DNA from: Promethearchaeota archaeon
GTDB lineage: Archaea > Asgardarchaeota > Lokiarchaeia > Sigyniarchaeales > SOKP01
Reading direction: 5' to 3'
DNA length: 64,000 bases
Assembly (NCBI GenBank): GCA_018238625.1
Contig: JABCSY010000004.1
Span: 22,868-86,867 of the forward strand
Shown here in pieces: positions 9,810 through 22,586 of this stretch. Position 1 is the stretch's first letter, and each line of letters opens with the position of its first letter. Under the pieces are notes generated by a model, which had not been told where the DNA came from, ran no database searches, and saw nothing but the letters and a program-made list of their open reading frames with translations. The position numbers and the translations under genes were made by a program.

Positions 9810-11027
9810 TTAAATAGAAGATAATTTTTCATTTATTTCGTTTTTATGTGTGAAAATTTTCTGGAAAGATATAATAAATGCTGGAAACGCAATAATTGCG
9901 ACGACGATTCCTAACCAATAAGGTGGGAGCGTATCAAGTATGAAAGGTCCTAATAACGGGCCAATTATTTGAGCAAGACTGTCTAAAGCAGAAGAAATAC
10001 CATTTATTTTACCTTGTTCCTGAGGAGATGCTGTTTGGGTAATTTTACTAAGCATGGGACCCCGGGTTAAGGAGGCTGCAAAACTAATAAACATCATAAG
10101 AATAAAAAGAACAAAAATATTTGTTGAAAAACCCAATAAGAAAAAGCAGACTAGAAATGTAGCTAAACCCAAACGTATAGCATTATCTTCCCCAAGTTTC
10201 CTAATAGTTGGTTTAAAAAGAGTAAATCTTATTCCTGTCCGAAATATTCCAGACGTCATAAATAAGATTGAAATGTCGATTGGCGTAAGATCTAGAACGC
10301 TAACACTGAAAAAAGAAAGGGAAGACATTACAATGGTAAAGGAGATTGTATGAAAGGCCCAGAGAGTTAGAATAGAGAGAGCACTTTTATTATCTCTTAT
10401 TTTAGGCAAAACTTCAAATTTGTTTTCATGAGGTTGAATCCTTTTTTCCTTCGGCCATGTCTCTTCCAACATAGCTAGCGTAACAATAATTGTAATTACT
10501 GTTAGACCAGCTGCAAATAATCCAGGTCCTAAAAGACCAAACCACGTAAAAAGAACACCCCCAATTGCTGGTCCTATTAGAGATGCTAACACATGGGCGA
10601 TCCCAACGTTAGCCATTTGAATACCTCTATCTTTTGGTGGAACTTTATCGCTTATGATAGCTTTAGCAATTGGAAAATTTCCTCCAAATATTCCATCAAT
10701 CATGCGTGCTAAAAATAACATCCATAATGTGTTTGAAAAAGCGGTTAATATAAACGCTAAACATGTGCCGAATTGAGAAATCAAAAGTAATGGTTTTCTC
10801 CCATATTTATCGCTAAGTTTTGCTAAAATTGGTCCAAAAATAAAACTGAACATTGCATTAACAGAAAATATTAATCCGATCATTGTCATAGAAGTATTAA
10901 AGAGTTCACTAAAGAATCCTACCATAGGAAAGAAAAGCGTGAACCCCAACACATCAATGAAAATAGCAATCCATAAAGGCGTTAATATTCGATATTTGAA
11001 TAGTTTTCTATTGTTATTTTCGGTCAT
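9810..11027 (-). CDS. MFS transporter, TetA/DHA1-like
   Basis: About 12 TM segments, motif A LSDKYGRKP and ARMIDGIFGG. Confidence 0.92.
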   Translation of the reverse strand: MTENNNRKLFKYRILTPLWIAIFIDVLGFTLFFPMVGFFSELFNTSMTMIGLIFSVNAMFSFIFGPILAKLSDKYGRKPLLLISQFGTCLAFILTAFSNTLWMLFLARMIDGIFGGNFPIAKAIISDKVPPKDRGIQMANVGIAHVLASLIGPAIGGVLFTWFGLLGPGLFAAGLTVITIIVTLAMLEETWPKEKRIQPHENKFEVLPKIRDNKSALSILTLWAFHTISFTIVMSSLSFFSVSVLDLTPIDISILFMTSGIFRTGIRFTLFKPTIRKLGEDNAIRLGLATFLVCFFLLGFSTNIFVLFILMMFISFAASLTRGPMLSKITQTASPQEQGKINGISSALDSLAQIIGPLLGPFILDTLPPYWLGIVVAIIAFPAFIISFQKIFTHKNEINEKLSSI

Positions 11028-11341
11028 ATTTTAATATTCCTAAATTATTTTAAGAAGAATAAGACAAGAATGCTCTTAATATTCCCTAAACTTATCAAAT
11101 AAAATAGACGATGACTATTAAATTATATTAAAAAAGATTTTGAATTTTTATATTAGATGAGATTTTAGCCTAAGTAATTTTACTTTTAAGCCTCTCTATT
11201 TCAATAATTTTATATGTTAATACCAGATGATTAATCTAGCAAAAAAAAGTTAAAGTTTGTTTATCGTCTTTCAAAAAGAGGTTAATTTTAAAATTCATTA
11301 GAGTTATTTTGTTTTTAAGAAAAAAAAAAGAATCGTAATTA

Positions 11342-12451
11342 ATGATGTCTGAAACCTATGAAAACTTTATGATTTATGGATTAGAAAGTACTGGCGAAAA
11401 AGTTAGGTTAGATATTACCGAAGAAGATTTTCGCGCTAATAATGGAACGAACGTATTAAATCCTTACCAAGTACTAGTTATCGTAAAAGAAGGGTTAAGG
11501 AGAATCTATATTTGGAAGGGGGTTGAGTCCCCCGTTAGAAAAAAATTTATTGCGTCGCAAGTCGCCGCACAATTACAAAACGATTTAGTCGTTAATGGTC
11601 ATTTTCATAGATGTAAGATAATTTCGGTTGACCAAGGAGACGAACCACGCGATTTCTTGAGAGCGTTTGATTTTGAATCGATAGAAATTCAAGAGATCTC
11701 GGAAGCTTACAAAAGCGAGTTTAGACAGATTCAACCTATATCTATGGGTAAAGAAAAGAAGGTTTATCAATGGGGGGGACCTCCTCCTGCTTTAAAAGCT
11801 AATAGTACGATTAGTAAAAAAGTAAAAGAATCCGATAGAGAAATTACGCTAAAAAGTAAAGACCCTATTAAACCCCCCGAATTAGATACTAGGAAAATTA
11901 TCGAAAAGATTGTAAAAAATGAGGTTCCAACCAATTTCAAGCGTCAAAATTTGATTTTAGGTAACTTCGAAATTTACGGAGCAGTTATCAAGAAAGCTAA
12001 AATTTTCGGAAAAGAAGTGGAAGAGGTCGATTGGGAGCCAGTTAACTCCTTACCTCACGATATAGTCGAGTTAGATAATCGAACTTTAAGAATTTATTTC
12101 GATGGAGAAAATGGGACGATTGAAGGGCTAGAAATACTCCAAAAAACGAGCGCCCCTCAAATTGAAGAAAAAAAGGATAACAAATTAGACTATAATAAAT
12201 GGACGGTAAAAGAATTGAAGCAATATTGCCAAGAAAGCGACATAAAAATACCTTCGTCGTATAAAAAAGCAGATATTATAAAGCTTATTCAATACGGACC
12301 CACTCTAGATGCTATTGACCAGAAGATTGACTATAACAAGTGGACGGTAAAGCTATTAAAGGAGTTTTGTCAAAAAAATGATATTAAGGTGCTAACTTCT
12401 TATAGAAAAGCAGACTTAGTACGAATTGTGAAAGAATATAATGAAAAATAA
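11342..12451 (+). CDS. Gelsolin-domain protein with two C-terminal SAP/Rho-N-like repeats
   Basis: Gelsolin-repeat pattern VLVIV...RIYIWKG.ESP..KKF.A...A..L...VDQGDEP.DF. Two C-terminal copies of DYNKWTVK.LK..C....IK...SY.KAD. Confidence 0.8.
   Translation: MMSETYENFMIYGLESTGEKVRLDITEEDFRANNGTNVLNPYQVLVIVKEGLRRIYIWKGVESPVRKKFIASQVAAQLQNDLVVNGHFHRCKIISVDQGDEPRDFLRAFDFESIEIQEISEAYKSEFRQIQPISMGKEKKVYQWGGPPPALKANSTISKKVKESDREITLKSKDPIKPPELDTRKIIEKIVKNEVPTNFKRQNLILGNFEIYGAVIKKAKIFGKEVEEVDWEPVNSLPHDIVELDNRTLRIYFDGENGTIEGLEILQKTSAPQIEEKKDNKLDYNKWTVKELKQYCQESDIKIPSSYKKADIIKLIQYGPTLDAIDQKIDYNKWTVKLLKEFCQKNDIKVLTSYRKADLVRIVKEYNEK
12188..12435 (+). repeat. Two coding repeats, 141-bp period (SAP/HeH-like)
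   Basis: gactataataaatggacggtaaa at 12188 and gactataacaagtggacggtaaa at 12329. Confidence 0.85.
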
Positions 12452-12481
12452 TAGATAAAAAAAATACTATATTAAATTTAC

Positions 12482-15451
12482 TCAATCCTGAGAAGCGTAG
12501 AAATCGTCGAAGCTTTCTTGTAACTGAATCATGTATAGCTTTCTCTTTCCAGGTATAACTTTTTCTGTAAGCGTTTTTGCTTTCTCGTAGCAGGTGGCTG
12601 CTTCTACGCGCATTCCTAAGTGTTTATAGGACTGGGCTAATTTTAGAAAAGTGTGAAATGCGAACCAACTTCTTGGGTTGGCTTCTAAAGCTTGGGTAAA
12701 TTTCTCGATAGCACCTTTGTAATTTTTTGAGTTCATTAATACCTCCCCGTATGTATCGTACAGGTTTGCATCGAGAGGTTCGATTTCGATAGCTTTTTCA
12801 ATTGTCTCAATTGCTTCATCGTATCTTCCAATATTACTCAATGAAATGGCTCTATTGTTTAATAACCCTGGCGAGTTTGGATAAAGATCTAAGGCATCGT
12901 CAAGAGTCTTGATCACTTCCAAATAATTACCCATCGTGTAATGCGTAAAGCTTTTCAGTTGATACAACGATTTACGTTCCTGTGGAAATTTTTTCATCAT
13001 CTCATCGATAAGAGCCATTACATCACCTCTCATACTATCGTTCGTAATGTACAAGTGAATTTTTGTATTATAGATATCGAAGTGGTCAGGGGTTAATTCA
13101 ATTGCTTTTTCAATTTCAACTAAAGCCTCTTCAGTCCCATTTGTCTCATTTAAAATATAACTATACAGTTGATAATACCTAGCCAAATGTTTTTTATTCA
13201 GCCCCATTGATATCGCCTTCTCAAATTCCTCAACAAAGAGCTCTTTGTTTGCTTTACTCACATCAAAATTGTATACAATGTTGAATCCGTGAACCAATCC
13301 GGTAATAATATGAGAAAGTGGGTGATTTATGTAATGAAACCTTGCTTTATTGACTATGTCTAAGGCTTTCTCGAACTTTCCTCGTGTTAAATACGAGAAG
13401 GATAGTATCAAATACGCTGCTGTATCGATGCGGGGGTTATGATCGAGTAAATTGATTTTAACTACTTGTTTAATCCAATTTTTCCCCTCTTTATAATTAG
13501 TTGTGAATATGTATAATAGAGCTTTCATTACTGAGAGTTCTAGATCCCTAGGACTTATTTCAATTAATGAATTAATAAGTTCCAAAGGCCCGTCAATTGA
13601 TTTTACACAGCACTCTTTATCTGTTAGGAGGCACAGAAATTTAGTTCGTTGGAGCAAAATATTATCAGGGTATTCAGCTAAAGCTTCTTCTACAACGATT
13701 AAAGCTTTATCGTGGTCAAGATTTATTAGTATTTGGGCTTTTTGAGCAAAAAGCGATGCATCGTAAGCTCTGCTTAACCCAGATTCGATGACTTCTAACG
13801 CTCTATTGAATTTACCCATAAAGAAATAGGTTATTGATTGAAACAAATAACCAATATATTCATCAGGGTGTTTATTTATGATTTCTTCAGTTAGCTCGAG
13901 CGAATCCTCCAATTCTCCATTGCTAGTGTAAAATAAATCTTTCAGAATCATTAGTTCAATATCGTTCAAATTTTTTAAATTATCTGTAAGTAATTCGTTC
14001 ACTTTCGATAGTCTTCCTTTCGCCAACTTACTCTCTATATTCGCCAAAAACTCAGCGTTCTTAGGGAAGTATTCCTTTTTGAATTGAGATGTTCGAATAA
14101 AATTAATTTTGCTCAAATAGAAAATGTCCAAGCTATCAAAAATTCTGTTGTGTAAGAAGTAATACGCTTCGCTATCGGCTGGTTTGTTTATCGAACTCGC
14201 CGTATCAGATGTATCAAAACTTTGAATTACCTCGAAAACGTTTTGAAAGGCGATCCCTTTTATTTTATCTGTATGGTCGATCAAACTCTTCTCGCTCTCA
14301 AATTTATACGCCAAATGCTCGATATACCCCGGAATGAATTTTTTTAAAGCCGGTTTCAAATCGTCGTGGAATAAAATACTACACATATCGCCCGTTATAT
14401 CTTCAAGTAACTCGTTGATATCAGGTATGTGTGGAGATTGAACGCCACTCGCTTTCTGGAACTTACTCAAATAGGTAAATCTCCTAATGAAATCTTCGAT
14501 AATTATATTAAGCATTTTTTCTAACCGTTCTTCAGCCTGAATGTAGTAAGTGTATTTACCGCTTACATTTAGTTTAAAGAAGCATATCGGATAGATGTTA
14601 TCTTCAACGATCTTCTCAATGAAGAAGTTCAATGTTGTTAGCTTTATATCGTATTCTAAAGCAAAATCTTTAGCCGTGATGTAGTTAGGGTATTGATCCG
14701 GGTGATTAATAGCGAGATAAAGCAGAATTTTATCAAAATCCACCTCGTTGGACAAAGTACTTTCAACCTTAGTATAATCCAACCTGAGCACCATGTTCAA
14801 AAATCTGTATTTTATCCCGTTATCATCGATATTGTATTCTTTAAAAAACTCCGCTACTTTATCTGTTATTACATCAACTCTCTTGCTCTCTTCGTCTAAT
14901 ATCGATTGGCGATCTAAATCGTATTTCTTTAACATATTAAAGTATTCTAGCTCACCTGAATTAGTAATCAGATACTCTCGATTATTTTTCTCAACATAAC
15001 CATTATCAAGTAATAAATTCAAGTTTTTTGACAATGAGGATTGATTGATTTTAAGCGGTTCCTCAAGAAAATCTGACCATTTACAATGGTGGTTATTGTA
15101 CAACATCCACAGAATCCAATCATCGTAATTTCTCTTATTTGTTATAGTCTCAGGTGGATAATTCAATGATTTTTCAAGCATATCTTTAACTTGAAGATTG
15201 GCATATTGTTTTCGACCTTCAGCTGTAATCTTATACTTACCCTTCCTCTCCTTCTCAATAAAACCATTATTAATTAAGATTGTAAGATATTTAGACAAAG
15301 TTGCTTGACTTATGTTTACAGGATCTGATTTAAAATCAGACCATGAACAATGGTCGTTATTGGAGAGCATCCAGAGTATAATATGCTCAAAATTTTTGTT
15401 GATTTTCATAGGTGTAATTATACCTTCTGGTGGAAATTTTGGTATACTCAT
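12482..15451 (-). CDS. Tandem winged-helix + TPR-repeat protein (putative ligand-responsive transcription regulator)
   Basis: Two N-terminal repeats ILWML.NN.HC.WSDF...P..I.Q..LSK.L..L...G..EK.....Y.IT..G (MarR-like wHTH) and possibly a third degenerate one. The C-terminal half has many TPRs (e.g. LLNNRAISLSNIGRYDEAIETIEKAIEIEP; YDTYGEVLMNSKNYKGAIEKFTQALEANP). Confidence 0.88.
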   Translation of the reverse strand: MSIPKFPPEGIITPMKINKNFEHIILWMLSNNDHCSWSDFKSDPVNISQATLSKYLTILINNGFIEKERKGKYKITAEGRKQYANLQVKDMLEKSLNYPPETITNKRNYDDWILWMLYNNHHCKWSDFLEEPLKINQSSLSKNLNLLLDNGYVEKNNREYLITNSGELEYFNMLKKYDLDRQSILDEESKRVDVITDKVAEFFKEYNIDDNGIKYRFLNMVLRLDYTKVESTLSNEVDFDKILLYLAINHPDQYPNYITAKDFALEYDIKLTTLNFFIEKIVEDNIYPICFFKLNVSGKYTYYIQAEERLEKMLNIIIEDFIRRFTYLSKFQKASGVQSPHIPDINELLEDITGDMCSILFHDDLKPALKKFIPGYIEHLAYKFESEKSLIDHTDKIKGIAFQNVFEVIQSFDTSDTASSINKPADSEAYYFLHNRIFDSLDIFYLSKINFIRTSQFKKEYFPKNAEFLANIESKLAKGRLSKVNELLTDNLKNLNDIELMILKDLFYTSNGELEDSLELTEEIINKHPDEYIGYLFQSITYFFMGKFNRALEVIESGLSRAYDASLFAQKAQILINLDHDKALIVVEEALAEYPDNILLQRTKFLCLLTDKECCVKSIDGPLELINSLIEISPRDLELSVMKALLYIFTTNYKEGKNWIKQVVKINLLDHNPRIDTAAYLILSFSYLTRGKFEKALDIVNKARFHYINHPLSHIITGLVHGFNIVYNFDVSKANKELFVEEFEKAISMGLNKKHLARYYQLYSYILNETNGTEEALVEIEKAIELTPDHFDIYNTKIHLYITNDSMRGDVMALIDEMMKKFPQERKSLYQLKSFTHYTMGNYLEVIKTLDDALDLYPNSPGLLNNRAISLSNIGRYDEAIETIEKAIEIEPLDANLYDTYGEVLMNSKNYKGAIEKFTQALEANPRSWFAFHTFLKLAQSYKHLGMRVEAATCYEKAKTLTEKVIPGKRKLYMIQLQESFDDFYASQD

Positions 15452-15496
15452 GATTTAATAATGGTATTGCGTCTATATAAGGTTTTTTGTTCGCAT

Positions 15497-15555
15497 CGAA
15501 CTTCGAAGTTCGTTCGAACTTCTCAAAGTCAAACTATATTAAACCTTTCGAACTT
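15497..15555. promoter_or_regulatory. Putative operator in divergent promoter: perfect 16-bp palindrome plus two extra half-sites
   Basis: CGAACTTCGAAGTTCG (15497-15512) is its own reverse complement. TTCGAACTT recurs at 15513-15521 and 15547-15555, flanking a TATA-like TATATTAAA near 15535. Confidence 0.7.
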
Positions 15556-15602
15556 AATCAAATTAACAACAAAAAAAAATAAAAAAAAAGAGGTAAAATA
15601 AA

Positions 15603-15677
15603 ATGAAAAAGGATGAAAATAGAAAACTCATAAAAATGGTAGAATTTAACCCAGCAAATTTAATTTGTAGATATTAA
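15603..15677 (+). CDS. Small peptide 1 (24 aa) MKKDENRKLIKMVEFNPANLICRY
   Basis: GAGGT at 15590-15594, 8 nt before ATG, with an A-rich leader and a T-run after the stop. Similar to peptides 2 and 3. Not in the ORF track. Confidence 0.75.
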   Translation: MKKDENRKLIKMVEFNPANLICRY

Positions 15678-15749
15678 TTAAATAATATTTTTTTTATATA
15701 ATTTTTAAACCAAAAAAAATTAAAAAAAACAAAAACGAGGTAAGATAAA

Positions 15750-15821
15750 ATGGAAAAGTACGATGAAAGATTGATAATAATAAGAAACGCGGGATACATT
15801 CCTGAGCGTTTAGAGTTTTAA
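15750..15821 (+). CDS. Small peptide 2 (23 aa) MEKYDERLIIIRNAGYIPERLEF
   Basis: GAGGT at 15737-15741, 8 nt before ATG, with an A-rich leader and a T-run after the stop. Confidence 0.78.
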   Translation: MEKYDERLIIIRNAGYIPERLEF

Positions 15822-15925
15822 CCTAAATTAATTTTTTTTAATTCAACATTCAAAATTTAACCAAAACAAAAAACAAATCAAAAAAATTAAAAAACAACCA
15901 AAAAATAAAAACGAGGTAAAATGAT

Positions 15926-16000
15926 ATGAAAAGAAAAGAAAAGGATACCCAAACAATCCTAAACCCGACGGGATATAATACTGCAACATTAAGATTTTAA
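15926..16000 (+). CDS. Small peptide 3 (24 aa) MKRKEKDTQTILNPTGYNTATLRF
   Basis: GAGGT at 15913-15917, 8 nt before ATG, with an A-rich leader and a T-run after the stop. Confidence 0.78.
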   Translation: MKRKEKDTQTILNPTGYNTATLRF

Positions 16001-16030
16001 ATTAAATTTTTTTTGTCTTTTTATTTTTAC
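16001..16030 (+). terminator. Oligo-T archaeal-type terminator after the peptide cluster
   Basis: ttttttttgtctttttattttt follows the stop of peptide 3. Similar T-runs follow peptides 1 and 2. Confidence 0.45.
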
Positions 16031-16033
16031 TCC

Positions 16034-16306
16034 TTATTTATTAATACTGCTTTCTATTTCGCTTATTCTTTTTTTACCCATTCTAGTTATCGTGTAATTT
16101 CTCTTACTAACTTTGTGAATATAACACTTCTCAATGAATAAGCGAAGGTATTTTGATAAAGTTGCTTGACTTATATTTACAAGATCCGATTTAAAATCAG
16201 ACCATGAACAATATTCGTTAGTATAGAGCATCCAGAGAATGCAGTATTCAAATTTTTGGGAATTATCTAGAAATTTGTTTAAGATTTCTTTAGATGGATA
16301 AATTAT
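16034..16306 (-). CDS. Stand-alone winged-helix mini-protein, paralog of the first wHTH of 12482-15451 (non-ATG start or pseudogene)
   Basis: CSWSDFKSDLVNISQATLSKYL versus CSWSDFKSDPVNISQATLSKYL. Homology (IIYPSKEIL...KFEYCILW) continues in frame upstream of ATG 16231 with only ATA/ATT starts. The upstream in-frame stop is at 16331-16333. Confidence 0.7.
   Translation of the reverse strand: MIYPSKEILNKFLDNSQKFEYCILWMLYTNEYCSWSDFKSDLVNISQATLSKYLRLFIEKCYIHKVSKRNYTITRMGKKRISEIESSINK
16158..16212. repeat. Direct repeat of 15297-15351 (52/55 identical)
   Basis: Manual alignment. The segment encodes the HTH helices of both wHTH genes. Confidence 0.9.
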
Positions 16307-16395
16307 TTTTCTAATTAATCTAAATTGTCTTTATTTTGTTTTATTGAGAAATCCTTGTTCATGTACTAAAAAAAAGATTAAAATTAATTAGAATT

Positions 16396-17301
16396 TTAAC
16401 TAAATACATTAGTTCCTTTCTGCTCTAAGAGATTTCGAATCTTTACGAGATAGCTTCTTTTATAAAATTGAATTTTTGATTCTGAAAAAGGTAATAAACT
16501 CCAATAATAAGCCAGAATCTCTTCAGGATGTAATCTGTGCTGGTTGTTGTAGGGGTCAATTTCTTCGCACAACTCAAATAATTTAAGTGGAGGAGTTATG
16601 AATTTTGGTCGGTTGTTTTCAAATAAAGGCAAGCATTTATTATCTTTCATTTCAAACTCAAGAAATGTAAAACGGAAGTATTCAAAAAAATATCCACCTC
16701 TAAAAGGAGTTTCAGAATAGAGAAAAGGAACTGCTTTTATCTGGGCCCCGTTATTTTGAAATGTTACATAGCAGTTCTTTCCAATTGTATCCGGATTTGA
16801 CACATATAGGTGTTTATATTCGTTAGGGACATCTAATTCGGGACAAGCTGTAAATCCAAGTTTAAGATATAAGTCATTCCGGAATTTTGTGTTAGTAGTG
16901 CTAATTACGTGAAAAAGTTCGTGTGCGATTAGTTCTTTTAATTCGTCGTATGGCCATTGAACCATAGAAATTGGGACATAGATAGAAGTATTCCTCGTGT
17001 AAGCGGCATCGCATTCCTCTCGACCTGTGGTTTTTATAAGTTTAACGCTGTCCAATAGGTATTCTTTGTACGGCGCGTAGCAAATGTCCAATTCGCTGAA
17101 AATTCTATTAACGATAATTTCCTCAGAATCTGTCCATTCAACCGTTTGTCGGGAAAGAAACTCCACCAAGTCTTCTTTCGATACCTTTTCCGTGGTTCCT
17201 AAGCGAGACTGTAAGTCAAACTCGCTAAAATTAGAAATATAATCGTCTTTTTCGGCGATTACGGAAGATGCTGTTTGAGCATCAAGAAGTTCAGCCTTCA
17301 A
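16396..17301 (-). CDS. Zincin-like metallopeptidase (HExxH)
   Basis: AAYTR...LIAHELFHVI and distal HPEEILA. RBS-like AGGGTGA upstream of the TTG start. Confidence 0.7.
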   Translation of the reverse strand: MKAELLDAQTASSVIAEKDDYISNFSEFDLQSRLGTTEKVSKEDLVEFLSRQTVEWTDSEEIIVNRIFSELDICYAPYKEYLLDSVKLIKTTGREECDAAYTRNTSIYVPISMVQWPYDELKELIAHELFHVISTTNTKFRNDLYLKLGFTACPELDVPNEYKHLYVSNPDTIGKNCYVTFQNNGAQIKAVPFLYSETPFRGGYFFEYFRFTFLEFEMKDNKCLPLFENNRPKFITPPLKLFELCEEIDPYNNQHRLHPEEILAYYWSLLPFSESKIQFYKRSYLVKIRNLLEQKGTNVFS

Positions 17302-17559
17302 TTAATTTTCACCCTAGTAAAATATGCTGATGGATTTAATGATGAAAATTATGAGATAGTATTTAAGAAAACAGAGGGTAAAAAATTAGTATTTTAAATA
17401 AAAAGGAATTGTTATTTGGTTTAATAAACCCTATTCTTTTTTAATTATCATAAAACTTAATTTTAAGAACAAGAATTTGCATTATTTATGGAACAAGAAG
17501 TTTTTTTGACACAAGAAACTATTCTGTAATTTAAATACTCGTTTAGGATCTAAGATTTT

Positions 17560-18936
17560 ATGGTTTATTTTAAGATTAATGGTTTAGGATATAACTGCGG
17601 ACTAACCAAGGATAATTGCCCACAGAAAGCGCAATCTTGTAGGGAATGTATTAAAAAGCGATTATTGGATTTAGGATTCGAATTTGAGTCAACCTTAGAG
17701 GTTATTAAAATTGATTCTGTCGATAAACAGCTTAAACTAGAAAGAAAGACCATTTGGAAGAAATTTTTAGATGTCTTGAATATCAAACATATTCTCTTAA
17801 TGGATAAGCGTTCAGGGCTAACTTTATTAAATTACGCAGTCTCAGGTGTCGATATTGATGCGGATTTACTGAGCGGCTTTATTCAAGCCAATATTACTTT
17901 TTCAGAATCTAGCGAAGTTTCGAACAAAAACATCGTACCTTCCTTCGAGTTTCAATTCTACGAATTTCAATATAAGAAGTTTAACATTCTACTTAAAGAC
18001 GGTGATATTATCAGAGTTTGTTTAATTCTAGATCATAAAGCATCCATTAAACTAAGAAATCAAGTATTTCAGTTCTTAGAGGATTTTGAACCTCAATTTA
18101 AAGATGAACTTATAGATTTTCGAGAAAGGGGCGTGTACATTGATTTTCAAGACATGATAGGTTACATCGTTGAGTTTTTTAACATTAACCTTATGTTTCC
18201 CATGACTTTAGCTCGCTCGATACCACCTTATGAATTAGATAAAGTAAAAAAAAATCGAGTTCAGAAAGCCATATACAACCTCGCAAAAGAAATGCTAGGC
18301 ATAAAGCCCTTTTTTTTCATAAATAACATGCTCATTAGACTAAAAAAAATTGCTGATATTGAGGACGAAGTTATTCTTTATGAACTCTATCAACTATTAG
18401 AGCGTAAAATTATATCTCCAACGCCGATAGAAACAATTGCAAATAACATTGAGTCAGTTCAGTCCACAGATCAGAATAAATTGATAAAATCGAGTTTAAT
18501 AGCTCCAATTATTAATAATAATACCGATCTGGGGGATTTAAAAGAACAATTAACAACTATGGACGTTTACTCAGCGAGTAGATTGATAAGAGAGATTATG
18601 AAAAAAGCTCGAGCCGCAGCAAAAGATTCTAAATTTCAGGTATCCTTAAATGAATACAATAGAGCGCTATTAATTGCTAAAGAGCTAGATTTTAAAGAAG
18701 AAATAGCGAAGATATCGCTTAAGATTTTTAACATCGAAAGTAAGTCCAAATACATTGAGCTTGATTTTAATATTGAAAAAGCAGAAAATGCTGAAAAAAA
18801 AGGCGATGTATTCAATAGCATCAACTATTATCAACATGCGTTAAAAATTCTCGATGAATTCAAGGTGTACAATGTCTTGGATCCCAGAATAAGAAAAATT
18901 AAAAAGAAGATCCAAAAACTCAGAGAAGAAATATAA
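17560..18936 (+). CDS. Asgard-type protein with longin/roadblock-like domain and C-terminal TPR/MIT-like helices
   Basis: HILLMDKRSGLTL...DADLLSGFIQANITFS pattern, N-terminal 4-Cys cluster and helical C-terminus. Confidence 0.6.
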   Translation: MVYFKINGLGYNCGLTKDNCPQKAQSCRECIKKRLLDLGFEFESTLEVIKIDSVDKQLKLERKTIWKKFLDVLNIKHILLMDKRSGLTLLNYAVSGVDIDADLLSGFIQANITFSESSEVSNKNIVPSFEFQFYEFQYKKFNILLKDGDIIRVCLILDHKASIKLRNQVFQFLEDFEPQFKDELIDFRERGVYIDFQDMIGYIVEFFNINLMFPMTLARSIPPYELDKVKKNRVQKAIYNLAKEMLGIKPFFFINNMLIRLKKIADIEDEVILYELYQLLERKIISPTPIETIANNIESVQSTDQNKLIKSSLIAPIINNNTDLGDLKEQLTTMDVYSASRLIREIMKKARAAAKDSKFQVSLNEYNRALLIAKELDFKEEIAKISLKIFNIESKSKYIELDFNIEKAENAEKKGDVFNSINYYQHALKILDEFKVYNVLDPRIRKIKKKIQKLREEI

Positions 18937-19230
18937 AATCGGTTTTCTGAAAGAATAGTTTCTACTAAAATATTAGTATTCAGATTTTAATTTGTAACTT
19001 TAATTTCATAAGATTGTTTAAATCTCTCCTAATTCATACGATTTTTGATATCATTTTTTTAATATTTAATATTATATTTATATGGTATGTAGGGGTAATG
19101 TTATTTAGCAAACAAAATACGGTTTCTAAGCATTGCGTAAAAAAAAATTAAGTATAATGAGATAATAGAGAGTATTACTAATTGTCTTTCAAAAATATAA
19201 ATCTACAGCTTAGCTTAAGGTGGGAAAAAA

Positions 19231-20256
19231 ATAGTAAATAATAGATTAATAAAAAAAATAACTACAAGAGTACTAACAGATAGTTCTGAAATTTTAACTT
19301 ATTTGCAATTTGGAACTAATATTCCAATTCTCCCTGATCTTTCAAAATACATTTTACATGATCTGGAGTACTTTAAAGCAAAATCCATTTTGCTATTAGA
19401 AGGTGGAAATCCTGTTGGACAAGTATTAGTATATGACGATGGGCGAGATGCTTTATTTTTTGGATATTTTGGCATATTGAATCATAATAGTGCAAAAATA
19501 AATTTTTTAATTGATGAGCTTATTAAATATGCGAAAGAAAAAGAATATAAATTAATAAGAGGACCAATAAATATACCGGTAATTATATATGGATGGGGAT
19601 TTATGAAAGAAGGTAGTTTCGAAAGTTTATTTATTACTAAACCTGTAAATCCTCCAATATATCCAAAAACATTCTTAAAAAAGAAATTTTATGTAAAATC
19701 TGAACAGGTGACTTGGTTAGGTCCTCGTTTACCTCGATTTGATCCATGGAAACTCAAGAGATATGATTATAGTGATTACGAATATTTTTACCCTAATGAT
19801 ATTGCTGATTTTAAAAAGTATAAATCCGATTTTTTAAGAATACATGCAGAAAACTTGCCCCTCTCCGCTCAAATTACTCCGAGGATAAATGGGGTTTATG
19901 ATAGTTATGTAGACTTTGTTTTTAGATATGGATTTAACTTTATGATTTTTTTTGTAAAATTTAAACCTACAGAAAAAATTGTTGCTTGTGGAGCTTATTT
20001 ACCAAATCCGTTTAGAAAGGATTTAAAAGGAAACTATGATTCTTGTGTAATCTATACTTGGGCAGTTGAATCTAAACATAGGCGTAAGGGATTAGGAATG
20101 CTAATGTATGGGGCTACATCTCAATTACTATGGAAACAAAAAATTAAATATGGTATAGGCCCTATGCCTAAAAGTAATATTGCCAATATGGGTTTTGCGG
20201 TGAAACTTGGTGGTGTTATTAGTAGAACTCATCTTATTTTTGAATACAAGGTATAA
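19231..20256 (+). CDS. GNAT-fold N-acyltransferase
   Basis: FFGYF...IRGPIN and acetyl-CoA motif AVESKHRRKGLG. The frame is open upstream of TTG 19303 to ATA 19231, preceded by AAGGTGG. Confidence 0.75.
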   Translation: MVNNRLIKKITTRVLTDSSEILTYLQFGTNIPILPDLSKYILHDLEYFKAKSILLLEGGNPVGQVLVYDDGRDALFFGYFGILNHNSAKINFLIDELIKYAKEKEYKLIRGPINIPVIIYGWGFMKEGSFESLFITKPVNPPIYPKTFLKKKFYVKSEQVTWLGPRLPRFDPWKLKRYDYSDYEYFYPNDIADFKKYKSDFLRIHAENLPLSAQITPRINGVYDSYVDFVFRYGFNFMIFFVKFKPTEKIVACGAYLPNPFRKDLKGNYDSCVIYTWAVESKHRRKGLGMLMYGATSQLLWKQKIKYGIGPMPKSNIANMGFAVKLGGVISRTHLIFEYKV

Positions 20257-20381
20257 TAAAAATAATAGGTTATGTTTATAATGTAGATAGGAGATGTTAA
20301 ATAATGACAAGATCGGCAGGAATAGACTCAAAAGTTTAAAGAAAATGAAAGAAATTAAATATTATATTGATATGAATTAAA

Positions 20382-20711
20382 TCATAAAGGATAATTAGAG
20401 CGAAATGAAGTTCCTTTTTTTCCTTTAATCAAATCTTTAACATCTTGTTCGATTAATCTAAAATTATTATCTCCTTCAACTTTAATTTCATATATTGGTT
20501 TAAAATTCTTTTTGTTTTCGAATAGATGGATTATATAAGAACAAGGTACATCAATAATTGATATTATTATCCACTTCCTATTTTCTTCTTCATTAACATC
20601 TTTATAATTAAATATTACATTTTGTAAAGTGATTTCACATATATTTTCGAATTTTTTAATTTTTATTTGATAATTAATACCCAGTTTTTCTAATGCTGCT
20701 AAAAGATTCAA
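20382..20711 (-). CDS. Hypothetical protein
   Basis: 109-aa ORF filling a gap, with typical composition and no motif recognised. Confidence 0.5.
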   Translation of the reverse strand: MNLLAALEKLGINYQIKIKKFENICEITLQNVIFNYKDVNEEENRKWIIISIIDVPCSYIIHLFENKKNFKPIYEIKVEGDNNFRLIEQDVKDLIKGKKGTSFRSNYPL

Positions 20712-20897
20712 AGTATTATCGGATAAACCATCTATCGCTTTAATATAATCATCTTAAAAGTAATAATTTTAAAAAAAATTTATACAAACCTATAATGAAA
20801 GAATTTCTATATAAATTCAATTTTTCAAGTATTCAAATAAAAAGGAATTGCGATTTGATTTGAGAGTTATTTTAAATTGAAAAAAAGCTATTTATTT

Positions 20898-21614
20898 TTA
20901 TAACTCACGCCCGATTCCATAATAAATAAAAATTGCTGAGGAGATCATTAGAAAAAAAGTAACTACAACCCACACCGACCTAAAAAGAGGGTCTTGCCAC
21001 GTGATATAAAGAACTGCCCCATAAAGTATTAAATACATCCCGAAAACACCAATAATAAAAGTTATGAGTTTCTTCTTAAGTATTTTATCTTGAAATGTTT
21101 TTATTAAGCGTCTTGAATATATCACTGTTGGTATAACAATACATCCTGTAAAAATAATATAAATACACATAAAAAAAGTCCAACTATAAATCGGTCGCCA
21201 CTGTTCGGTAAATGTAATTCCATTGGGAATAAAAAAAAATAACCCATTAACAAAACCGTAAATTATTGTAATAATCAATTGTTTTTTTATTGTGAATACA
21301 AATTCAAGCTTAAGTATGCTGACTATAAATGTAAGGATAAAAATAGGTGAAAACAGCATTGGATAAAATGTGAAGATGTAAAGTATTTGTAACAACAATA
21401 CATTGTCAGGTATAAATGCTGCTGTTACAATAAAAATAGCATTAAATATTAATCCGAAAGCTGTAAAAAAATAAACCATGCTTAAAGTAAGAATGGGACG
21501 CGGTCGATTACGTATTAGTAATTTTATCGCAAGAAATAAAAATATACATGCTACAATCAACTGTGGTATAAAAATGATTAATAATCTTGACGGATCTGTT
21601 GATTGTAATATCAT
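20898..21614 (-). CDS. ~7-TM membrane protein (HisKA_7TM-like sensor domain, no output domain)
   Basis: About seven hydrophobic segments and W.PIYSW loop. RBS AAGGT.GTG. Confidence 0.6.
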   Translation of the reverse strand: MILQSTDPSRLLIIFIPQLIVACIFLFLAIKLLIRNRPRPILTLSMVYFFTAFGLIFNAIFIVTAAFIPDNVLLLQILYIFTFYPMLFSPIFILTFIVSILKLEFVFTIKKQLIITIIYGFVNGLFFFIPNGITFTEQWRPIYSWTFFMCIYIIFTGCIVIPTVIYSRRLIKTFQDKILKKKLITFIIGVFGMYLILYGAVLYITWQDPLFRSVWVVVTFFLMISSAIFIYYGIGREL

Positions 21615-21734
21615 GTTATAACACTACCTTTTATTAACCACTTAGTTAATTTAATATAGTATTTCTATTATTAATTGTTCATTCTTTTATTTAAGTGTAT
21701 AAATATGTGAATATAAATTAATGTTTATTCACAT

Positions 21735-22586
21735 TTAGAATTTGAAATTTATTGATTTTGACTGAAAATAATCGTATCCAATTATCTGAGGGGCAAGAAT
21801 CATCCTTTTTATTTTAAGAACTCCCGAAAAAATCACCTCAAAAGTAAGATACGAAGCAGCTATTCTTACTAAAGGAGCCATTGCTATAAAAGGAAGATTT
21901 CCTGAAAATATCCCGTCCATGGCACCCTTTTCACGATCATAACGCGAGATTATTTCGGGAAACTGTGTCAATTTATCTAAAACCTGCTTTTTAATGTCTA
22001 TTAAAACCGATTTTGATTGATAAATTTGGGGAATTGTCATTTTATTTGTTTTAAAACCATAGCAAGTTTCGTAATCCTCGCTTTCAGAAGTAAACCACCA
22101 CGCCCAAAGGTAAGGCACCGCCCATGCTTCTAGCATTAAAATCTTTAGTTCTCTACATTTACGCGAAATCAGTATAGAAACAATAGGATCGTCTAAAGTT
22201 AAAGCCACAACGGAAGAACCCTCTATAATTTTTAATACATTTCGCTCGTTAACTTCGTAATACTTACATACATTAATTTCGGGGTTAATATTCTTTAGTA
22301 ATTTTTCAACTACATCGACTTTGTATTCTCCTATATCTGCTCTTACGCATACTTGTCTGTTTAGATTAGATTCTTCAAACTTGTCGTTATCGCATATAAC
22401 AAGATTTTCGCATCCAGAGCGAGCAAGTTGTTCCGTTAGTGGCCCACCAAGACCTCCTTGACCAAGAATTGTAATCCGAGCTTTACGAAGTTGTTCTTGT
22501 TCAATAAATGTTACGAGCCCGATATTTCTATTAATTTGATTCCAATACGACTGAGACCAATTTTTAGGTCGTTTATCTTCAAACAT
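21735..22586 (-). CDS. ThiF/MoeB/E1-like adenylyltransferase
   Basis: RNIGL...EQ..L, GQGGLG and D.DKFEESNLNRQ. No paired CxxC Zn motifs. Confidence 0.9.
   Translation of the reverse strand: MFEDKRPKNWSQSYWNQINRNIGLVTFIEQEQLRKARITILGQGGLGGPLTEQLARSGCENLVICDNDKFEESNLNRQVCVRADIGEYKVDVVEKLLKNINPEINVCKYYEVNERNVLKIIEGSSVVALTLDDPIVSILISRKCRELKILMLEAWAVPYLWAWWFTSESEDYETCYGFKTNKMTIPQIYQSKSVLIDIKKQVLDKLTQFPEIISRYDREKGAMDGIFSGNLPFIAMAPLVRIAASYLTFEVIFSGVLKIKRMILAPQIIGYDYFQSKSINFKF

Follow-up and report, generated by a model that had tools for sequence, protein, structure and literature searches.

The 64,000-nucleotide stretch of Promethearchaeota archaeon DNA considered here (the window; C150:22868-86867) belongs to a genome assembly (G000) of 201 contigs, 4.29 Mb, and 32% G+C. 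Between positions 15560 and 16030, the window contains a tandem array of three very short open reading frames (ORFs), each within a cassette that has its own leader, ribosome-binding signal, and downstream T-run. Judged by their sequence conservation, these cassettes are real micro-protein genes that encode peptides of 23-24 amino acids and form a family with three subtypes (A, B, and C). The array lies back to back with the gene of a 989-amino-acid receptor-regulator (12482-15451, minus strand; called the receptor below), identified by Pfam and AlphaFold as two winged helices joined to tetratricopeptide repeats (TPRs). The array, the divergent regulator, and the palindromic candidate operator between them appear to constitute a conserved module, and the cassettes are co-inherited with the receptor.

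Structure and translation signals of the cassettes

The first-pass annotation of this DNA described three cassettes, each composed of an A-rich leader, a GAGGT word followed after 8 nt by ATG, 23-24 codons, a TAA stop codon, and a T-run; all of these elements are present in the sequence, and the peptide translations given there are the same as those re-derived here. The GAGGT-to-ATG gap is exactly 8 nt in all three cassettes of the window. All three lie on the plus strand. Leader 1 (15560-15602), which is A/C-rich and unstructured, contains its Shine-Dalgarno (SD) word at 15590-15594 and precedes micro-ORF 1 (15603-15677), the 24-amino-acid subtype A gene; the 8-T run 3' of this gene (15688-15695) is a candidate archaeal oligo-T terminator. 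Leader 2 (15707-15749, A/C-rich, GAGGT at 15737-15741) precedes micro-ORF 2 (15750-15821), the 23-amino-acid subtype B gene, with an 8-T run at 15832-15839. Leader 3 (15854-15925, also A/C-rich, GAGGT at 15913-15917) precedes micro-ORF 3 (15926-16000), the 24-amino-acid subtype C gene, and the 8-T run at 16007-16014 marks the end of the array. The cassette units repeat with a spacing of 147 nt and are 64-71% identical at the DNA level. The array starts 152 nt from the start codon of the receptor, on the opposite strand, and the T-run beyond micro-ORF 3 is followed by opposite-strand genes.

The leaders (15560-15589, 15707-15736, and 15854-15912) and their counterparts in the orthologous loci L031-L040 are 40-90 nt long and consist almost purely of A and C on the coding strand. 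They often open with TTTAACC or AACCAGG directly after the previous T-run, and their composition is kept despite sequence drift. Neither spacer between the micro-ORFs folds: the minimum free energy (MFE) is -3.3 kcal/mol (z = 0.37) for 15675-15752, which includes leader 2, and -2.67 kcal/mol (z = 0.51) for 15819-15928, which includes leader 3. Within 15000-16400, the sole metatranscriptome matches are four short poly-A-type pieces at 15863-15903 (85% likeness; three runs of the same study), and a look-up of RNA data covering 15300-16300 listed no run. The peptides encoded in the window are rich in K, R, E, and N, and their aliphatic patch is just 3-4 residues long. The earlier statement that no classical signal peptide is visible holds more widely, as no signal-like hydrophobic stretch is apparent by eye in 37 aligned micro-peptides.

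The cassettes are among the best-signalled ORFs in the genome. GAGGT is a true SD word here, because the 3' end of the 16S rRNA (contig C22) reads GGATCACCTCCT and pairs with GAGGT. It is also a rare signal: just 98 of the 2427 long ORFs in the genome (4.0%) have it in the 20 nt before the start codon, most commonly at a spacing of 8 nt (18/99 occurrences). Across both strands of the 4.29-Mb genome, 154 ORFs of 12-60 amino acids have GAGGT at 5-11 nt from an ATG, and the C-terminal motif of the micro-peptides occurs only in the three of the window. In its strict form, this motif terminates 4 of 242,682 stop-to-stop segments of at least 10 amino acids (the window three and one on contig C100); taken by itself, this count would be circular reasoning, the same three peptides having served to define the motif. 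The C100 match, which has no GAGGT and apparently lies inside a longer frame, was dropped. Independent support for a non-chance origin comes instead from conservation in other genomes, and the cassettes are not chance.

Conservation of the array and its association with the receptor

The orthologous set comprises 11 loci: the window and 10 same-genus orthologues whose contigs reach upstream of the receptor gene. The N-termini of the orthologous receptors are 62-91% identical to that of the window receptor. Micro-ORFs of the three subtypes are found at the equivalent place and on the equivalent strand in 11/11 loci. The subtype B tail (I-I-I-K-N-A-G-Y-x-P-x-R-[LF]-x-[FM]) is present in all 11, the subtype A tail (V-E-G-F-N-P-x-x-L-x-x-[RK]-[FY]) in 8, with L038 having a divergent ORF in the corresponding position, and the subtype C tail (I-L-N-P-T-G-Y-N-x-x-x-x-R-[FY]) in 7. 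The translation signals are similarly constant across the 27 orthologous cassettes. The SD core is GAGGT in 23, GAGTG in three (all of subtype C, from three loci), and AAGGT in one; its spacing is 8 nt in 21, 7 nt in four, and 9 nt in two. The start codon is ATG in 25 and GTG in two, the stop codon is TAA in 23 and TAG in four, and a run of at least five T residues occurs within 40 nt of the stop codon in 24.

The proposal that selection acts at the peptide level is upheld by these comparisons: in 10 other genomes the ORFs, their SD spacing, their length, and the motif have been retained despite divergence of the DNA. Frameshifts or premature stops with loss of the motif had been named as evidence to the contrary, yet the reading frame is open in 26/26 aligned cassettes (a set that excludes the divergent L038 ORF at the subtype A position from codon analysis) and the motif is kept; alignment gaps are whole codons by construction, as the alignment was peptide-guided. 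The ratio of nonsynonymous to synonymous change (dN/dS), a test suggested with the first-pass annotation, is 0.38-0.53 when pooled over Nei-Gojobori pairs (A, 0.53 over 28 pairs; B, 0.38 over 55 pairs; C, 0.45 over 21 pairs). For subtype B, pN/pS is 0.48 in frame versus 0.85 and 1.09 in the shifted frames. The minimum numbers of changes at codon positions 1, 2, and 3 are 51, 51, and 75. As read from these substitution patterns, selection at the peptide level is real but moderate and is strongest in the C-terminal half.

The link between the cassettes and the neighboring TPR gene, which the first reading of the sequence had also drawn, is borne out as a conserved genomic association in both the orthologues and the paralogue subfamilies. 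The only constant neighbor of the array is the receptor, while the far-side genes differ among orthologues. Several paralogue subfamilies, whose receptor N-termini are 45-55% identical to that of the window receptor, have their own 70-95 amino acid ORF plus one or two micro-ORFs; endings of the paralogue micro-peptides include NPAYIMY, NNPAYRIY, GYNPVYPRY, GYDSDYF, and NNYGAY. Altogether, 37 micro-peptides fit one pattern: an initial M and a run of charged residues lead into an aliphatic I-I-I patch, after which come G-[YF]-N-P and an aromatic terminus. The N-terminal half of the peptides is variable and the C-terminal half is conserved.

The association was surveyed in 125.5 kb of sequence upstream of 89 receptor genes, drawn from about 125 receptor matches and including 78 further paralogues; the survey left out the ortholog L010, whose contig starts at the gene, as well as partial matches and lower-ranked full-length matches, and the genome G038 was viewed separately. 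Micro-ORFs were called by blind criteria (an SD-like word, ATG or GTG, 18-32 amino acids, five T residues within 40 nt, and F, Y, or W as the last residue), which overlook known members with M, L, or R in last place or with no such T-run. Applied to the whole genome (8.58 Mb of strand), the criteria return 44 matches, or 0.0051 per kb, three of which are the window cassettes. Upstream of the 89 receptors they return 28 matches on the divergent strand versus 2 on the other strand, figures that are descriptive counts rather than P-values because related genomes are not independent samples. All 28 divergent-strand matches adjoin receptors of at least 800 amino acids. At least one match occurs at 19 of the 36 loci that combine a receptor of this length with at least 600 nt of flank, and at 0 of the 49 loci with a receptor of at most 700 amino acids; these two length classes account for 85 of the 89 loci, the other four having less than 600 nt upstream or a receptor of 700-800 amino acids.

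Receptors of about 640 amino acids (L055, L057, L063, L064, L067, L068, L078, and L084) are often accompanied by a divergent ORF of 65-80 amino acids in place of micro-ORFs. This ORF ends in Y-Y-Y-L-N-P-E-K-F-x-F-x-L-K-D-L, also occurs beside the 832-amino-acid receptor of L026, and represents a further kind of small partner protein within the receptor family.

In nine of the 11 orthologous loci (L031-L035 and L037-L040), a longer sister ORF of 89-95 amino acids lies in the interval that separates the candidate operator from the first micro-ORF (oriented-region positions of about 460-760). Its product starts with M-A-Q-A, continues with a basic helix and Y-N-A-R, and ends in G-x-R-N-x-x-x-N-F or similar. 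The sister ORF is missing from L036 and from the window; the window has lost it, and micro-ORF 1 therefore directly follows the promoter. The sister protein is annotated in public records as a hypothetical protein, a Pfam search of the 95-amino-acid form gave nothing significant, and a profile of the 89-95 amino acid family retrieved just 12 clusters at E ≤ 0.001 among 1.84 billion representatives. A weak hhalign match (probability 3%, P = 0.015) pairs the aliphatic patch and G-Y-N-P of the micro-peptides with the basic helix and Y-N-[AP] of the longer protein, which is no more than a lead to a shared ancestry of the two. Complex prediction for the TPR part (residues 430-988) of an orthologous receptor (P0004) and its own 95-amino-acid array protein (L034), run without controls, gave a score of 0.00. 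In G038, a genome of another family, a 91-amino-acid relative of the longer ORF is present and no micro-ORF is seen.

The receptor, its control region, and possible functions of the peptides

Pfam matches on the receptor include HTH_45, HTH_34, and MarR at residues 25-87 and ~129-168, and many TPR families at 814-963. An AlphaFold model (61 homologues; mean predicted local distance difference test score, pLDDT, 83.4; predicted template modeling score, pTM, 0.58) places winged helices at residues ~21-89 and ~109-174. Between ~181 and 411 the model suggests a third winged-helix-like module with long helices, followed by a predicted disordered linker (405-434) and then by what would be an uninterrupted TPR superhelix (~435-989). 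At E ≤ 0.001, Foldseek comparison with the PDB yields 404 matches; among the best 50 are TTC7B, OGT, subunits of APC/C, SPINDLY, Ski3, Tom70/71, and Naa15.

Receptor homologues number 915 at E ≤ 1e-20 among 8000 scored and are, by name, TPR/winged-helix proteins of Lokiarchaeota and Promethearchaeota metagenome-assembled genomes. Of 36 other genomes in the genus, 34 contain matches to residues 1-433 (as many as 8 in one genome), and so does the 1 genome of a second family (1/1). No member of the receptor family was found in 23 genomes from five further families of the order or class (f2 and f4-f7), three single-contig genomes of the same order included. The check by Ribo-seq or peptidomics in a cultured Lokiarchaeon that had been suggested may not be possible. 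Across the receptor family, the TPR length range is 636-1015 amino acids. The paralogue in the same genome (contig C8:1-2074) is 47% identical to the window receptor in the N-terminal part (residues 1-419) versus 32% in the TPR part, and has GGAAGTTTCGAACTT-type repeats upstream. Contig C8 ends 238 nt upstream of the paralogue start, in an A-rich stretch that resembles the start of a leader.

The control region between the receptor and the array contains two predicted, divergent TATA-like boxes. The receptor-side box (CCTTATATAG, 15473-15482, minus strand) is located about 26 nt upstream of the ATG (15449-15451), a distance that suggests a leaderless or short-leader receptor mRNA; the same or a near-identical box occurs in the same place in orthologous loci. 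The peptide-side box (ACTATATTAAA, 15533-15543) is on the plus strand. Positioned between the two boxes, the candidate operator (15497-15522) consists of three abutting half-sites, CGAACTTC / GAAGTTCG / (TT) / CGAACTTC, that form two overlapping palindromes, and a further half-site (TTCGAACTT, 15547-15555) lies 3' of the peptide-side box. In orthologues, AAACTATATAAGAAC or near variants are found about 70 nt upstream of the first array gene. The element GAAGTTCGTTCGAACTTC is identical in 8 of 11 orthologous loci, and is one base shorter at each end in L038; L039 and L040 have degenerate versions, and paralogue subfamilies have related GAAGTTC-type inverted repeats at the equivalent place. The arrangement resembles a shared operator for two back-to-back promoters, to which the winged helices would presumably bind. 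The inner cassettes come after T-runs and have no clear TATA consensus; they may have their own promoters, or a single transcript may read through leaky terminators.

The favored reading of their function, put forward tentatively and by analogy, is that the peptides are the cognate TPR ligands of the regulator and take part in feedback, with a logic like that of RRNPP or Rgg/SHP (small hydrophobic peptide) systems. The regulator would bind the GAAGTTCG-type half-sites and control both its own gene and the peptide array. The peptide tail (G-[YF]-[NI]-[PT]-x-x-L...[FY]) would in turn bind the TPR domain of the regulator and alter its DNA binding, an effect that would close a feedback loop. The peptides could act either between cells after export or inside the cell.

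Background for this comparison comes from the RRNPP systems (Rap/Phr, NprR/NprX, PlcR/PapR, PrgX, AimR/AimP, and Rgg/SHP) of Firmicutes and their phages. Their receptors are cytoplasmic proteins that combine a helix-turn-helix (HTH) domain with TPR-type repeats, and they neighbor one or more very short genes of about 20-45 codons. The presumed active part is the C-terminal end of the peptide, and many paralogous receptor-peptide pairs may occur in one genome. In Rgg/SHP, the peptide gene is divergent from the receptor gene and the two have a common control region. The window receptor likewise unites an N-terminal HTH (winged, not of the XRE type) with C-terminal TPRs. Short peptide genes adjoin it and are kept in 10 other genomes and in paralogue subfamilies, the conserved part of the micro-peptides is C-terminal, and many paralogous receptor-peptide pairs occur per genome. 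In contrast to RRNPP systems, the host is an archaeon and the DNA-binding part comprises two winged helices. The TPRs of the receptor form a long canonical superhelix, of about 550 amino acids, that is structurally closest to OGT, APC/C, TTC7, and Tom70, the peptides are hydrophilic, charged, and devoid of an export signal, and an array may contain up to three micro-genes plus a 90-95 amino acid sister gene. Compared with Rgg/SHP specifically, length and divergent layout match, while the peptides are not small hydrophobic ones. The module is not filed as a member of RRNPP because both the homology test and the hydrophobic-peptide feature of SHP fail.

The fold class of the C-terminal 550 amino acids matches Tom70/Tom71, which bind the Hsp70 tail, and OGT (Foldseek matches 3fp4 and 3lca, Tom71 with a C-terminal fragment of Ssa1, and 1w3b, OGT); the ligands of these proteins are short extended peptides, although none of these proteins is a transcription factor and no neighboring gene encodes their ligands. 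This match is to a generic repeat fold (target-normalized template modeling score 0.39-0.47) and is uninformative on the ligand. Small proteins of less than 50 amino acids found by ribosome profiling in archaea and bacteria resemble the micro-peptides in length, in having their own SD sequence, and in being unannotated; the window set differs in forming tandem paralogue arrays with a fixed partner gene and a candidate operator.

Several observations weigh against the peptides being ligands of the receptor. The RRNPP receptors Rap, NprR, PlcR, PrgX, Rgg, and AimR are absent from the best 50 of the 404 Foldseek matches, and no RRNPP family is among the best 25 of 33 Pfam matches on the receptor; there is no sign of common descent with RRNPP because the Foldseek matches listed are generic TPR superhelices. 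The micro-peptides are charged and hydrophilic, have no signal sequence or long hydrophobic stretch, and in this are unlike the SHP, PapR, and Phr precursors. No exporter or processing protease consistently adjoins the arrays, as judged by Pfam on the window neighbors and by the orthologous flanks. The stretch of the sister proteins that best matches the micro-peptides in the weak alignment is internal rather than C-terminal, and is thus a misfit with a strict model in which a free C-terminus is read. Purifying selection, as estimated from codons, is only moderate, and for subtypes A and C the shifted-frame control gives only a weak contrast. Under the blind criteria, 17 of the 36 long-receptor loci have no match. 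Finally, subfamily-specific peptides beside subfamily-specific receptors prove no binding, because adjacent genes duplicate together.

The same evidence bears on other functions for the cassettes. The main alternative, unlikely though far from negligible, is that the micro-proteins are only the regulated output of the receptor and act on another target (such as an enzyme, a transporter, or the ribosome), while the TPR domain senses something else and no feedback exists. Divergent promoters with a common operator are the layout of a regulator and its target, conservation of the genes is accompanied by selection on their motifs, and hydrophilic peptides with no export signal would suit such a role. 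A receptor can also exist without micro-ORFs, because many paralogue loci lack a blind-criteria match (all 49 loci of the short class as well as those of the long class noted above). Yet there is no second conserved partner gene near the arrays, the far flank differing among orthologues; micro-ORFs occur solely beside long-TPR receptors; and a distinct peptide variant is maintained in every receptor subfamily. A direct partnership between peptide and receptor accounts for these points better, but none of them excludes a purely regulated output. A stronger form of the ligand proposal is improbable: that the arrays encode secreted peptide signals and each HTH-TPR paralogue is the intracellular receptor of its own set, amounting to cell-to-cell communication in Asgard archaea that arose independently of RRNPP. 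If true, a single genome, with its up to 8 receptor matches, would run several signaling "channels", each served by several peptide variants. The genome has 7 matches to SBP_bac_5 (PF00496), a family of oligopeptide-type binding proteins, above the cut-off, which show import capacity only.

The cassettes are very unlikely to be precursors of ribosomally synthesized and post-translationally modified peptides (RiPPs), with a charged N-terminal leader and a conserved-tail core. The tandem arrangement of several related, short genes that look like precursors, and whose products vary in the N-terminal half and are conserved in the C-terminal half, would fit this idea, as would a ThiF-family gene 5.7 kb away (21735-22586). 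The RiPP-like alternative raised in the first-pass annotation nevertheless loses ground on several counts: Pfam identifies no modifying enzyme, protease, or exporter family in the adjacent genes, the genes beyond the array differ among orthologues, with ThiF-like ORFs only in L031-L033, and the peptide tail does not have the Cys/Ser/Thr-rich core typical of many RiPP classes. That the ORFs are non-coding (chance frames in a repeated A-rich spacer, parts of small RNAs, or cis-acting leader ORFs) is hardly credible. At 32% G+C, about one in six 23-codon frames would be open by chance (a rough estimate), dN/dS is not very low, and the frame control has the weakness mentioned above. Against this, a start codon, an SD at 7-9 nt, and a stop codon are found at the matching place in 27/27 orthologous cassettes, the motif is kept across receptor paralogue subfamilies, and the survey matches lie overwhelmingly on the divergent strand (28 versus 2). 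A structured RNA was rejected: Rfam has no match at the array (10000-22000 searched; the sole match, at 10446-10474, has E = 0.85, which is chance level), and the RNA folds no better than shuffled sequences (z = 0.06 to 0.87, with one at -1.76). A leader or attenuator peptide was likewise rejected, as micro-ORF 3 is followed by a T-run and then by opposite-strand genes, leaving no structural gene downstream in the same direction to control.

Micro-peptide genes fall below the usual length threshold of gene callers, and HTH-TPR peptide-receptor signaling has been described for Firmicutes and phages. The exact micro-peptide sequences were not found in a collection of 15 billion proteins, and full-text literature searches returned no paper that describes an archaeal HTH-TPR/peptide system in its title or abstract opening. 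In a passage of PMC12700828, "archaea" occurs only in the reference list. A conserved module of receptor and micro-peptides in the archaeal lineage closest to eukaryotes offers a concrete system for the question of peptide communication in archaea, and one that is testable, with a defined candidate operator and ligands that can be synthesized. It also reveals a blind spot, in that well-signalled peptide genes escape both annotation and so large a protein collection. Should the peptides be merely regulated small proteins, they would still be a new set of conserved archaeal micro-proteins.

Genes surrounding the module

The neighbors of the module in the window encode a major facilitator superfamily (MFS) transporter, a gelsolin/SAP protein, the receptor itself, proteins with no assigned function, a GNAT protein, and a ThiF-family protein. 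Directly beyond the array, a 65-amino-acid ORF (16034-16231, minus strand) is 54% identical to residues 17-87 of the receptor, the first winged helix, and its DNA resembles 15260-15380. In G002, the counterpart of this ORF is the C-terminal part of a 362-amino-acid ORF that is convergent with the array. The 65-amino-acid ORF may be a truncated remnant or a stand-alone winged helix.

Farther from the array, also on the minus strand, a 301-amino-acid ORF (16396-17301) has an H-E-L-F-H (HExxH) motif and no Pfam match. In the ESM Atlas it falls near DUF4157 / eCIS_core clusters (score 0.97, with the family on 12-14% of members); as a lead only, it may encode a zincin-like peptidase. A 303-amino-acid ORF with a near-identical N-terminus comes after the array in L031 and lies at a distance of 2 kb in L039, and neither form occurs in the remaining orthologous flanks. 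The ThiF-family gene (21735-22586, minus strand) encodes an E1-like adenylyltransferase, an assignment from a Pfam test of the window copy. By N-terminal sequence, ThiF-like ORFs are present at matching distances in L032 and L033 and partially in L031, and in none of the other orthologous flanks.

Directly downstream of the 3' end of the receptor gene, a plus-strand gene (11342-12451) encodes a 369-amino-acid protein with a gelsolin repeat and a SAP/HeH/LEM-type motif. In Asgard archaea, gelsolin is regarded as a eukaryote-like signature.

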